DNA of 64,000 nt, from NCBI RefSeq assembly GCF_029227855.1, contig NZ_CP074356.1; one strand, given 5' to 3'. Source of the DNA: Escherichia coli. GTDB lineage: Bacteria > Pseudomonadota > Gammaproteobacteria > Enterobacterales > Enterobacteriaceae. Below, one piece after another: positions 17,550-30,232 of the stretch. The stretch's first letter is position 1. The number at the start of each line of letters is the position of its first letter. The notes under the pieces were generated by a model. That model searched no databases and was not told the DNA's origin. It saw nothing but the letters and a program-made list of their open reading frames with translations. A program made the translations under genes and the position numbers.

Positions 17550-17580
17550 CTTATCTCCAGTCACTCCATGCAGTTGTTAA

Positions 17581-18289
17581 TAAATATCCTCCGGCATAGC
17601 CGGAGGTTTTTCAAATGCGCCTATAAGGCTCTCTTACCAGCCGCGCCCTAACAGGCGCACACGATCTGACATTTGCATCCAACTTCGTTACTTACGGCCC
17701 GTAAACGGGCTGCCCGGATAGGGAATCGATAACTGCTCTCCCATTTTATCCTCTTCAAGCTGGTGCTTTGTGTAATCCTGTATCTTCGCCGTGTTCTTAC
17801 CCACTGTATCGACGTAGTACCCTCTGCACCAGAACTCCCTGTTCCTGTATTTGAATTTCAAATCACCAAACTGCTCGTAAAGCATCAGACTGCTTTTCCC
17901 TTTCAGATATCCCATAAACCCGGATACGCTCATTTTAGGCGGGATCTCCACAAGCATATGGATATGATCTGCACAGCATTCAGCTTCCAGAATCCGTACG
18001 CTTTTCCACTCACACAGCTTTCTCAAAATACTGCCTATTGCTCTACGCTTCTCTCTGTAGAACACCTGTCTTCGGTATTTTGGCGCAAAAACTATGTGAT
18101 ATTTACAGTTCCATCGGGTGTGCGCTAAGCTCTTTTCGTTCCCCATTGGGACCCCCTTTTGATTTCTTGTTTGACACTTGCAGTTGCCAGACCGCAAGGT
18201 GTTTTAACAAATCAAAAGGGGTTTTAATAACAGGCTCAAAGCTGAAAGCTTTCCGGAACCCCCAGCCTAGCTGGGGGTTTTCTGTGCAC
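17581..18289 (-). mobile_element. IS200-family insertion sequence (IS200/IS605 family), copy 1, ~709 bp
   Basis: Single Y1 (HUH) transposase gene; subterminal hairpins (cctccggc ata gccggagg at 17588..17606; aacccccagc cta gctgggggtt at 18257..18279); a stem-loop sequesters the tnpA RBS; boundaries set by comparison with copy 2 (ambiguous by about 2 nt at one end and a 6-nt A run at the other). Confidence 0.85.
17688..18146 (-). CDS. tnpA: IS200 TnpA, Y1 HUH transposase (152 aa from ATG 18146)
   Basis: HuH motif HIHMLVEIP and putative catalytic Tyr in ...IQDYTKHQ...; AGGGGG RBS 6 nt upstream of the ATG. Confidence 0.9.
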   Translation of the reverse strand: MGNEKSLAHTRWNCKYHIVFAPKYRRQVFYREKRRAIGSILRKLCEWKSVRILEAECCADHIHMLVEIPPKMSVSGFMGYLKGKSSLMLYEQFGDLKFKYRNREFWCRGYYVDTVGKNTAKIQDYTKHQLEEDKMGEQLSIPYPGSPFTGRK

Positions 18290-18312
18290 AAAAAAGCCGC
18301 CTGGCTGGCGGC
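18290..18312 (-). terminator. Intrinsic terminator of ydcH (gccgcc/ggcggc hairpin plus T6 on the minus strand); the T-tract directly abuts the IS200 end
   Basis: Seen directly. Confidence 0.5.
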
Positions 18313-25100: not shown

Positions 25101-25277
<177 letters not shown>

Positions 25278-25348: not shown

Positions 25349-25522
25349 TCAGTTAGTGCATGTTTTTTTCGATGCACTAATAGAACCATCATTACAGACA
25401 AATTTGCCGCCTGCCGTACAGTGTGAGATCCCCCCTTTCGAACCAGAACAGGGTTTGCGCCCGGCATCGGCATAAAAGGAAACAAGCGTTCCCATAAACA
25501 AGATAAGTGCCAGTTTTTTCAT
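25349..25522 (-). CDS. ydcA: Small secreted protein YdcA (57 aa)
   Basis: Hand translation MKKLALILFMGTLVSFYADAGRKPCSGSKGGISHCTAGGKFVCNDGSISASKKTCTN with signal peptide and GGAGG RBS. Confidence 0.8.
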   Translation of the reverse strand: MKKLALILFMGTLVSFYADAGRKPCSGSKGGISHCTAGGKFVCNDGSISASKKTCTN

Positions 25523-25766: not shown

Positions 25767-26297
25767 TCAGGAACGTTTACGCGGCATCATGCGTAGAAGT
25801 GTGTTGTCCTTCCAGAAATAGTGGTGTGCCAGTGCAGCCGCAGCGTGCAACCCGATGACAAAATATCCCAGATTCGCCAGCATTTCATGCCACGACTTTA
25901 AGCTATCAACCCGTTCGAAATTGGTCTCTGATGCATAAGGCATCGTCAAACCAAACGCAAACCACGGGTTGCCTCGGTTATACATCATCACCAAACCAAT
26001 CACTGGCAGCGCAATAAACAGGAGATAAATCACCAAATGTCCCAAATGCGCCAGTCCCGTCATCATCGGTTTTGGCTTAGGTATAATCGGCGGGGTTGGG
26101 TATTTCAGCCTTAACAAAAGACGAACGACCATCAGCACGAGAATTGATATGCCACAGGAAACATGAATCATGTTGATGAGTGGCCGATCGCTACGTGGGA
26201 AGAAACCCCGAAACTCCATTGCGCAATACGCTGCAATAACCAGCAAAAAGACCAGCCAGTGAATGCTGATTTGTAACCTTGAGTATTTATTTCCCAT
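25767..26297 (-). CDS. cybB: Cytochrome b561 CybB (176 aa from ATG 26297)
   Basis: Four-TM haem protein ORF; internal ATG matches the K-12 length. Confidence 0.9.
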   Translation of the reverse strand: MGNKYSRLQISIHWLVFLLVIAAYCAMEFRGFFPRSDRPLINMIHVSCGISILVLMVVRLLLRLKYPTPPIIPKPKPMMTGLAHLGHLVIYLLFIALPVIGLVMMYNRGNPWFAFGLTMPYASETNFERVDSLKSWHEMLANLGYFVIGLHAAAALAHHYFWKDNTLLRMMPRKRS

Positions 26298-26485
26298 AAC
26301 ATTTCCTGCTTTAACATAATTTGCCGTTAACATAACGAGCTTTTCTTAAAATTTCATTAAATATTGTTCACCCGTTTTCAGTACGTTACGTTTCACGGCA
26401 AGAATGTAGATTGCCCATCCCGCCATCGTGGTCTAAGCCTGGAAAGGATCAATTTTCATCCGAACGTTCCTGACAGGAGAAGACC

Positions 26486-27487
26486 ATGAGTAAAGTTGGT
26501 ATTAATGGTTTTGGTCGTATCGGTCGACTGGTGTTGCGTCGATTACTTGAAGTCAAAAGCAACATAGACATTGTTGCTATTAATGATCTCACTTCCCCAA
26601 AAATTCTCGCCTACCTGTTGAAACATGATTCAAACTACGGACCGTTCCCCTGGAGCGTTGATTTTACGGAAGATTCACTTATCGTTGATGGAAAAAGTAT
26701 CGCGGTTTACGCCGAAAAAGAGGCTAAAAATATTCCGTGGAAAGCGAAAGGCGCAGAAATCATTGTCGAATGTACTGGCTTTTATACCTCCGCCGAGAAA
26801 TCGCAGGCGCATCTTGATGCTGGTGCGAAGAAGGTGTTGATTTCCGCCCCTGCCGGTGAAATGAAAACCATCGTTTATAACGTCAATGACGACACACTGG
26901 ATGGCAACGACACCATTGTTTCCGTGGCGTCATGCACCACTAATTGTCTTGCACCGATGGCCAAAGCCTTGCACGACAGTTTCGGAATAGAAGTCGGCAC
27001 GATGACGACCATTCATGCCTATACCGGCACTCAGTCACTGGTGGATGGCCCGCGTGGTAAAGATCTACGCGCTTCACGTGCAGCGGCAGAAAATATCATT
27101 CCCCACACTACGGGGGCGGCAAAAGCCATTGGTCTGGTGATCCCAGAACTGAGCGGCAAACTGAAAGGTCATGCACAACGCGTACCCGTGAAAACCGGTT
27201 CGGTGACTGAACTGGTGTCTATTCTTGGAAAAAAAGTGACTGCCGAAGAGGTGAACAACGCGCTTAAAAACGCGACAAACAATAACGAGTCATTTGGTTA
27301 TACCGATGAAGAAATAGTCTCTTCCGATATCATTGGCAGCCATTTCGGTTCGGTGTTTGATGCCACGCAAACCGAAATTACCGCCGTGGGCGATTTACAG
27401 CTGGTGAAAACGGTCGCCTGGTATGATAACGAATATGGCTTCGTCACGCAGCTTATTCGCACCCTCGAAAAATTCGCTAAACTCTGA
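26486..27487 (+). CDS. gapC: Glyceraldehyde-3-phosphate dehydrogenase GapC, intact 333-aa ORF
   Basis: NAD-binding [10 protein letters not shown] and catalytic [10 protein letters not shown] motifs; uninterrupted frame with AGGAGA RBS. Confidence 0.9.
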
Positions 27488-27495
27488 CGCACACA

Positions 27496-27516
27496 GGCGG
27501 AGGAAAAACCTCCGCC
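27496..27516. terminator. Bidirectional intrinsic terminator between convergent gapC and aldA (ggcggagg aaaaa cctccgcc)
   Basis: Seen directly. Confidence 0.5.
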
Positions 27517-27527
27517 TCTTCCACTCA

Positions 27528-28967
27528 TTAAGACTGTAAATAAACCACCTGGGTCTGCAGATATTCATGCAGGCCATGTTTACCATCTGCGCCGCCAATA
27601 CCGGATTTACGCCATCCGGCGTGGAATCCTTGCATAGCTTCGAAGTTTTCACGGTTGATGTAAGTTTCACCAAACTTCAGCCCTTTAATGGCTTTCATCG
27701 CGACGTTCAGATTTTGGGTATAGATTGATGAGGTCAGGCCGTAATCACTGTCATTAGCCATTGCGATAGCCTCTTCCAGCGTGTCAAATGCGACCACTGG
27801 CAGCACCGGGCCAAAGGTTTCCTCGTGCATAATCGACATATCCTGGCGAACATCCAGCAGCAATGTCGGCGGATAATAATATCCTTTCCCCTCTACCGCT
27901 TTGCCACCCAACGCCACTCTCGCCCCTTCTTCTACTGCGCGCGCCACTTTTTGCTCGACCCTTTCCAGCGCCGCGGCGTTAATCAACGGCCCCATCGCAA
28001 TGTCGTTGCGTTCAGCGGGGTTACCAAATTGAACCGCCTGCAACGCTTCACCCAGCCGATTGACGAACTGATCATAAATGCCTTTCTGTACATAAACACG
28101 TTCTGCACAGTTACACACTTGCCCACTATTAATGACGCGTGAATCAACGATGGCTTTGACTGCCAGTTCAAGATCGGCATCGTCCATTACGATAGCCGGT
28201 GCTTTACCCCCCAGTTCCAGGCACACTTTGGTGATGTTTTTCGCCGCAGTCGCCATAATCTTTTCACCTGCAGAGACGCTGCCTGTCATACTGACCATTG
28301 CGACCTTTGGGTTACCCGCCAGTTCTTGCCCAACGGTTTCACCACGCCCCAGAACAAGGTTAAACACGCCGCGCGGAAGGCCTATTTCATCGACGATTTT
28401 GGCGAATGCAATCGCATTGTTTGGCGTAAATTCACTGGGTTTAATGACGATGGTATTACCGGTCAAAAGAGCGGGAGCCATTTTGCGGGCAATGAGGAAG
28501 AACGGGAAGTTCCACGGCAGAATGCCGGTAGTCACGCCAAGCGCACGTTTGAACAGAAGAATATTTTCTCCTGGACGATCGCTTTGAATAATCTCGCCTT
28601 CATAACGCCGTGCCCACTCCGCCATGTAATCGATATAGTCCGCAGTAAAAGCCACTTCGACTTCAGCCAGCTGCTGGATCTTGCCCCCTTCTTCAACAAT
28701 CAGCGCACTGATTTCGCTGGCGCGTTTGCGGATCCCGGCGGAGATTTTGCGCAACCAACTGGCGCGTTCAATAGCAGGCAACGCTTCCCATTCTGGTTGT
28801 GCACGTTCTGCTGCATCGATTGCCTTACGGGCATCCTCGGCCTGACCATCGGGAATGCGGGAAATGACAGCCTCTGTAGCAGGGTTTACCACATCAATCC
28901 ATGCGTCTCCACGCCAGGTAACAAACTGTCCATCAATATACATAGGATGTTGAACGGGTACTGACAT
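27528..28967 (-). CDS. aldA: Lactaldehyde/glycolaldehyde dehydrogenase AldA (479 aa)
   Basis: Aldehyde dehydrogenase with catalytic motifs (ELGGKAP; NSGQVCNCAER); recognised sequence. Confidence 0.95.
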   Translation of the reverse strand: MSVPVQHPMYIDGQFVTWRGDAWIDVVNPATEAVISRIPDGQAEDARKAIDAAERAQPEWEALPAIERASWLRKISAGIRKRASEISALIVEEGGKIQQLAEVEVAFTADYIDYMAEWARRYEGEIIQSDRPGENILLFKRALGVTTGILPWNFPFFLIARKMAPALLTGNTIVIKPSEFTPNNAIAFAKIVDEIGLPRGVFNLVLGRGETVGQELAGNPKVAMVSMTGSVSAGEKIMATAAKNITKVCLELGGKAPAIVMDDADLELAVKAIVDSRVINSGQVCNCAERVYVQKGIYDQFVNRLGEALQAVQFGNPAERNDIAMGPLINAAALERVEQKVARAVEEGARVALGGKAVEGKGYYYPPTLLLDVRQDMSIMHEETFGPVLPVVAFDTLEEAIAMANDSDYGLTSSIYTQNLNVAMKAIKGLKFGETYINRENFEAMQGFHAGWRKSGIGGADGKHGLHEYLQTQVVYLQS

Positions 28968-29163
28968 GAGCGGCTCCTGTGATTTATATGTTTGTTTTTG
29001 GTAAATACATTGTTAATTAACATCAATCATCAGAGAGACGGCATCATGAAAGGACAATTCTGTGAAGGGCTTCATAAAAACAAGTGTAAAAGGAATAAGA
29101 GGCAGAAATAAAAGGCAGGAGTTATGCCCGTTTGCAAACAAGTGGTTCACAAACGGGCAATTT

Positions 29164-29964
29164 TTAACGTAACGAGCGACTTTCCATCGCCTCGATGAGC
29201 ACCGCATCGTGTTTCAGAGTTTGCCATGCATGGATGACTTCTGCCGGAAAATCAACGTGAACGATAAAATCTCGCCCGCGGGGACCGTAGCCATCGCTAT
29301 CATCGCGTAAACGCGGCAGCTCGCCAGTGAGTAGTGAGAGATAACGCTCAACCGGCCATAATCCTTGCAACGGATTAACAAAGATTACACTGTCTGCGTT
29401 ATTTCCTAACTGAGGAACGAATCCGGGATAACTTAACCAGCGTGGTGCATCGGGATTGTCCCCAGTCATACGGCGGAACGTCGCCATCGTGCGCCGCTGC
29501 ATGGTGGGGTCCTGAACAACGATAGCCGTATGAACTCGTTCTACGGCCTGATTCAATAGCGCGATGCTAAAGCGTGCGTTTTCACCGCAGTTTGTTGACT
29601 GGTCTTCAATCCAGATTTTTTCATGCGGAATGTGCCAGAACTGATGAGCGATATCCGCCAGGATGGTCGCTTCTGCTCTGCCAGTGGTGCGGATAGTGTT
29701 GTAGTGCAGATGCTGTGCGATGGCGCTATACAAAAAAGTTGTCGAGTGACCGATACCACCACTAATCAGTAAAGGAATTTGCTGATCGCGGGCAATCTTA
29801 CATGCCGCATCTATAGTCGGCATAACCGCATTGCCTGCAAGGATCACGCAATCGGCCTGATACGGCATCTCACCGGAGAAATCATCCTGCGCCAGCCACT
29901 GACCGATAACATTTATGGCATCTATGGTTGCCGGCGAAAGCGTCGGAAACGGGGTAATGTTCAT
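29164..29964 (-). CDS. ydcF: DUF218-domain protein YdcF (266 aa)
   Basis: Length and synteny as in K-12. Confidence 0.9.
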
Positions 29965-30232
29965 GGTTCCTCCTTATCGTTCCCTTAAGAATACTGCGTG
30001 AGATAATAATGAGAAGCGGAGCACTCTGAAAGGAGGAAGTCGTATGTCCTTAACCGCCACTCCGAAAGCCTGACATATCTTTTAAGGAAATGCTGTAGAT
30101 AAACATTATTCATCTTGCAGCAGAGAATTGTATTTTTCTGAATTCCTGAATTTTTACCCTTACCGTTTTAGAATTAATAAACCCGGCGCTAGATGCTTAC
30201 CGGGTTTTAGATTTATCAGGCAAATAGCAGGG

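Follow-up and report, generated by a model that had tools for sequence, protein, structure and literature searches.

Escherichia coli gapC, a pseudogene in K-12, is intact in this strain and very likely encodes a functional second type I glyceraldehyde-3-phosphate dehydrogenase

The DNA analysed here, which we call the window, is a stretch of 64,000 nucleotides from Escherichia coli (contig NZ_CP074356.1). The gapC reading frame in the window (Table 1) is the sole ORF at its position on the plus strand and contains no internal stop codon. It lies between cybB, its divergent neighbour upstream, and aldA, its convergent neighbour downstream. We found that the gene order cybB-gapC-aldA is common to the window, to K-12 (a DH1 derivative and MG1655) and to BL21. 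The intergenic region between the divergent cybB and gapC genes, where the gapC promoter is presumed to lie, is 94.7% identical to that of K-12 over 188 bp. Just upstream of cybB, as in K-12, are the type I toxin gene hokB, which encodes 49 aa, and ydcA (25128-25277, plus strand, and 25349-25522, minus strand, respectively); in K-12 the hokB-ydcA area also contains the sRNAs sokB and rydC.

Table 1. Coordinates of gapC, its sequence features and its flanking genes, counted from the first nucleotide of the window
Feature	Position	Strand	Description and basis
cybB	25767-26297	-	divergent neighbour, upstream of gapC
cybB-gapC intergenic region	26298..26485	.	188 bp, divergent, presumed gapC promoter; annotated gene starts
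Shine-Dalgarno AGGAG	26475..26479	+	6 nt 5' of the gapC ATG; read from sequence
gapC CDS	26486..27487	+	333 codons plus TGA, ATG start; ORF listing, TIGR01534, Pfam
GxGxxG dinucleotide-binding motif	26507..26524	+	G8-F-G-R-I-G13 (GFGRIG, residues 8-13); translation, GapA alignment
Codon 39	26600..26602	+	AAA (Lys) in the window, TAA (stop) in K-12 (K39*); alignment
Catalytic Cys150 codon	26933..26935	+	TGC, motif SCTTNC; translation
Catalytic His177 codon	27014..27016	+	CAT; translation
A7 homopolymer run	27229..27235	+	codons 248-250; A6 in K-12, giving a frameshift; alignment
GC-rich hairpin	27495..27517	.	9 bp, AGGCGGAGG-AAAAA-CCTCCGCCT; candidate shared terminator; RNA fold
aldA	27528-28967	-	convergent neighbour, downstream of gapC

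The translated protein was compared with profile models and aligned with GapA. Pfam recognised both Gp_dh_N (PF00044; 122.7 bits, E 9e-36) and Gp_dh_C (PF02800; 195.8 bits, E 4e-58) in GapC, each with a score far above the gathering score. The type I GAPDH model TIGR01534 matched residues 3-325 of the 333 with 446.2 bits against a cut-off of 367.2. C-terminal to the GxGxxG motif, the translation and the GapA alignment place Asp34, within the sequence AINDL, as the NAD-specifying acidic residue, and the catalytic His177 follows Cys150 by about 27 residues, the arrangement of a type I GAPDH. At the DNA level the gene shows 100% identity with the 'gap' CDS of E. coli JNEC-KY178 (WP_000048645.1), which is annotated as intact. 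An earlier note on this DNA had described gapC as an intact GAPDH of 333 aa with NAD-binding and catalytic-cysteine motifs and a good ribosome-binding site. The uninterrupted ORF, the N- and C-terminal Pfam domains and the TIGR01534 match agree with the first part of that description, and GFGRIG, Cys150 and the AGGAG 6 nt upstream of the start codon agree with the second. The note had allowed for a stop codon or a frameshift that it had missed, and we found none in the ORF or in the alignment with K-12.

Since GapA, Epd and the ArsJ-type GAPDH all belong to one superfamily and their models match with strong E-values, the ORF could on these grounds be gapA-like, or a specialised paralogue such as Epd or the ArsJ-associated GAPDH, and not gapC. 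However, among the GAPDH models of NCBIfam only the general type I model had its curated cut-off exceeded by the window protein, and the scores for all three paralogues fell under their own. GapA was rejected at 302.4 bits against a cut-off of 662 (PRK15425), and Epd (erythrose-4-phosphate dehydrogenase) at 279.9 against 539 (PRK13535) and 277.4 against 530.6 bits (TIGR01532). The ArsJ-associated GAPDH was rejected at 307.3 bits against a cut-off of 450 (NF033735), and no arsJ adjoins the gene. The protein identity to K-12 GapA is 47%, and the neighbours are cybB and aldA, which is neither an arsJ nor an epd-pgk-fbaA context. We therefore regard a paralogue under the gapC name as exceedingly improbable. 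The cybB and aldA flanks together with 95.9% DNA identity to the K-12 gapC pseudogene establish that the gene is gapC. This was the assignment of the earlier note, and the comparison with gapA that it had proposed as a check leaves the assignment standing.

GapA provides the housekeeping GAPDH activity of E. coli. GapA (b1779) and the window GapC belong to the same enzyme family, share fold and catalytic residues and presumably catalyse the same reaction. They differ in that GapA is encoded at another locus, that less than half of the residues are identical and that the window protein fails the GapA-specific model.

In MG1655 the orthologous gene is annotated as the pseudogene b4493 (formerly gapC_1/gapC_2, b1417/b1416), and in the K-12 derivative DH1Ec095 the corresponding feature is 1001 bp long and carries the RefSeq flag 'frameshifted; internal stop'. 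The K-12 and window genes lie between the same flanking genes and differ by 40 substitutions and 1 indel over 1002 aligned columns. We found two lesions in the K-12 gene, the nonsense codon K39* and a 1-bp deletion in the A7 run, and in addition the substitution R18G. Both lesions are absent from the window. The claim that gapC is intact here and broken in K-12 is thus borne out. The K-12 frameshift given in the earlier note is also real and corresponds to the change from A7 to A6, but that account of K-12 was incomplete in that it omitted the nonsense codon.

Because homopolymer runs such as the one at the frameshift site are well known to give indel errors, the intact state of gapC might in principle be a sequencing or assembly artefact such as a miscounted A6/A7 run. 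Against this, codon 39 reads AAA and not TAA in the window, which is a base substitution and not a homopolymer error. A further 39 positions separate the window allele from K-12, which a single miscalled base in a K-12 sequence would not produce. Moreover, an independent complete genome, that of the clinical isolate JNEC-KY178 from Japan, has the identical 1002 bp and differs from the window by 5 mismatches over 41 kb. With these observations an artefact is hardly credible.

The K-12 lesions can be placed in order. Strain PS2Canimalfeces12 (pig, China) has a gapC allele that carries R18G and K39* but retains the A7 run; such a stop-only allele indicates that the K-12 nonsense mutation predates the frameshift. 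A 35-mer containing the K-12 TAA codon was found in 1154 (21%) of 5426 complete E. coli genomes and a 38-mer of the K-12 A6 haplotype in 1049; the difference of about 105 genomes, with the stop 35-mer and no A6 38-mer, fits the stop having arisen first. The K-12-haplotype 39-mer with the A7 run restored is, by alignment, matched exactly by O157:H7 FRIK2069. We propose that the broken gene of K-12 is derived and specific to a lineage, and that it would have arisen in two steps, with K39* (and R18G) first and the shortening of A7 to A6 second.

The frequency of intact and broken gapC was determined across the same 5426 complete genomes. We found gapC in 5417 of them, with coverage of at least 80% in 5409, and a few genomes show truncation or absence of the gene. 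The 35-mer with AAA at codon 39 was present in 3711 genomes. Most genomes that match neither codon-39 35-mer have synonymous SNPs nearby, for example O157:H7 and O8:H8, both of which are intact. Together the K-12 gapC lesions are carried by about 19-21% of the genomes. Sampling the ranked matches at even intervals gave 39 full-length matches, 7 of which were of the 1001-bp K-12 type. When the annotation of 1002-bp alleles was inspected, 14 of 15 were intact CDSs and the remaining one had an internal stop only. The gapC gene of BL21(DE3), which was looked up separately, is intact. Intact gapC is the majority state, shared by about four in five of the E. coli genomes sequenced, and K-12 is the exception. 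Because the intact state predominates, the contrast between the window and K-12 tells more about K-12 than about the window strain. An intact gapC has been described before and is ordinary for E. coli, and there is nothing novel in the window copy.

The carriers of the K-12 allele are not confined to the laboratory. Among the matches listed, about two thirds of these carriers came from natural sources, namely human, pig, chicken, frog and river water, and both lesions occur together in a clinical isolate from China. A passage in PMC2949598, citing Espinosa-Urgel and Kolter 1998, gives the older view that gapC decay is a laboratory change and that the gene is intact in environmental isolates. 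With carriers among natural and clinical isolates, the K-12-type lesions amount to a lineage polymorphism that exists in nature and is not solely a product of the laboratory. The population counts thus call for a modest revision of the view that gapC decays only in laboratory strains. In the same genome set, five gapC matches lie on records classed as plasmids and not as chromosomes; large plasmids could carry chromosomal segments here, or the replicons could have been wrongly assigned.

With a nonsense codon in about 21% of complete genomes, a few copies truncated or absent and GapA known to supply the housekeeping activity, gapC might be a dispensable gene that is decaying throughout E. coli, so that the window copy would be intact only by chance or recency, a pseudogene in waiting. 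However, nearly all disrupted copies derive from one lineage-specific allele and not from many independent hits. We also calculated dN/dS by the method of Nei and Gojobori. Comparison of the window allele with five diverse intact alleles gave a ratio of 0.03-0.04 at a dS of 0.12-0.21, and among well-diverged pairs of alleles it was 0.01-0.06. Such low ratios indicate strong purifying selection. Cys150 and His177 are invariant across 8 aligned gapC alleles. Species-wide decay is therefore a very improbable explanation, and we favour an intact gene maintained as such.

The window allele itself is in the minority, with identity of at least 99% in only 112 of the 5417 genomes that have gapC. Across the part of the window from 25767 to 30483, identity to K-12 is lowest in gapC, at 95.9% versus 97.7% for cybB, 98.2% for aldA and 98.6% for ydcF. 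The gapC allele of PK12 looks mosaic, with a 5' half like that of the window and a 3' half of the common type. This mosaic pattern suggests intragenic recombination in gapC. A more speculative scenario, which we put forward only tentatively and consider rather unlikely as a whole, is that K-12-type inactivation did not result from domestication in the laboratory, which older literature implies, but is an old natural polymorphism that reached fixation in one large lineage of commensal and clinical strains, in which loss was possibly selected, with strong purifying selection elsewhere, and that, separately, the rare window allele is possibly a recombinational import with slightly different properties.

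A near-identical allele of this gene has been characterised biochemically. We found that the window GapC is identical to the protein in PDB 7C5F (EcGAPDH1) at 330 of 333 residues. EcGAPDH1 (WP_000048667.1; PDB 7C5F, 7C5H, 7C5P and 7C7K) is the product of the same gene at the cybB-aldA locus, is likewise 333 aa long and shares Cys150, His177 and the NAD-binding motif with the window protein. The window allele differs from it in having I29 for V, N262 for Q and N265 for T, and these three differences (I29V, N262Q and N265T from the window to 7C5F) are the same ones that separate it from the BL21(DE3)-type WP_000048667.1. In the alignment, Ile29 is matched by Ile in GapA, and residues 262 and 265 fall within a stretch in which GapC and GapA diverge. 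Judged from these alignments the three differences look benign, and no functional change would be expected from them.

EcGAPDH1 shows NAD-dependent GAPDH activity, with a Km of 0.73 mM for G3P, and this activity is abolished by the C150A mutation and lowered about 8000-fold by H177A (PMC8615399). The crystal structures of this 99%-identical protein contain bound NAD (PMC8615399). In vivo, the genotype delta-gapA::gapC is viable, and a strain carrying it was the starting point for the evolution of a synthetic methylotroph (PMC11611044); the allele that replaced gapA is named GapC (BL21) (PMC11471845). The enzyme assay and the gapA replacement suggested in the earlier note are already published for a 99%-identical allele. 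By analogy with this allele, from which it differs at 3 of 333 residues, the window allele should have NAD-dependent phosphorylating GAPDH activity.

Our data indicate that the window gapC is very likely an ordinary functional allele of the second, non-GapA type I GAPDH of E. coli, located at its usual place between cybB and aldA. GapC would convert glyceraldehyde-3-phosphate, NAD+ and phosphate to 1,3-bisphosphoglycerate and NADH, through a thioacyl intermediate on Cys150 and with His177 acting as the base. GapA, the product of a gene at another locus, would remain the housekeeping enzyme of glycolysis. With two GAPDH genes the strain is standard for E. coli, and K-12 is the atypical reference at gapC. 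Annotation or metabolic models based on K-12 would wrongly omit GapC for the window strain and for most E. coli.

We scanned the cybB-gapC region for consensus promoter elements and found nothing above chance. The scan returned one weak sigma-70-like site at 26291-26320, with 9 of 12 matches, where 2.0 such sites are expected by chance. In K-12 a ChIP-seq peak of sigma-S RNA polymerase lies within the gapC-cybB intergenic region (PMC4447067), and gapC_1 is among the differentially expressed genes in a K-12 transcriptome table from a study of RpoS and cAMP-CRP (PMC4512719). Passages in PMC2949598 and PMC1796617, both citing Espinosa-Urgel and Kolter 1998, describe gapC as preferentially expressed in fresh water. 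Going by the K-12 ChIP data and this cited literature, gapC expression is probably conditional and would be driven from the cybB-gapC intergenic region. The drive may come from stationary-phase sigma-S RNA polymerase together with a low-temperature or freshwater response.

This intergenic region also differs between strains. In BL21(DE3) an IS1 element (IS1A, NC_012971.2 1444168-1444865) is inserted between gapC and cybB, in the presumed gapC promoter region, and the gapC ORF is intact; the window has no insertion there. The IS1A element could alter the expression of gapC or cybB in B strains.

Downstream of gapC, where 40 bp separate its stop codon from that of the convergent aldA, lies the GC-rich hairpin. 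Its predicted RNA fold has an energy of -18 kcal/mol (z = -4.4 versus shuffles). A terminator scan of the gapC-aldA gap did not call this hairpin because it is without a canonical U-tract. The hairpin may serve both genes as a terminator. In strain 2015C-3108 aldA is annotated as frameshifted and gapC is intact, and the inactivation state around gapC-aldA varies by gene and by strain.

A second locus in the window differs from K-12 in the opposite direction. In the window ynbD (34995-36377, minus strand) is split into ORFs of 150, 114 and 132 aa, whereas in MG1655 it is a single CDS of 1293 bp (430 codons). The gene is likewise annotated as 'frameshifted' in the near-identical JNEC-KY178. The earlier note had reported ynbD to be fragmented and had concluded that the inactivation state differs from K-12 at more than one locus. 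The three ORFs against the single MG1655 CDS support the first statement, and an intact gapC beside a broken ynbD supports the second. Next to the broken ynbD, the genes ynbA, ynbB and ynbC look intact.

The window also contains two copies of IS200C, at 17579-18300 and 43123-43843, which are 98.9% identical to each other. IS200C is absent from the rimL-ydcH junction of BL21 and from the K-12 stretch examined. In the window one copy lies between rimL and ydcH and the other between pdxI and paaY, and at the corresponding positions of JNEC-KY178 tnpA is annotated.
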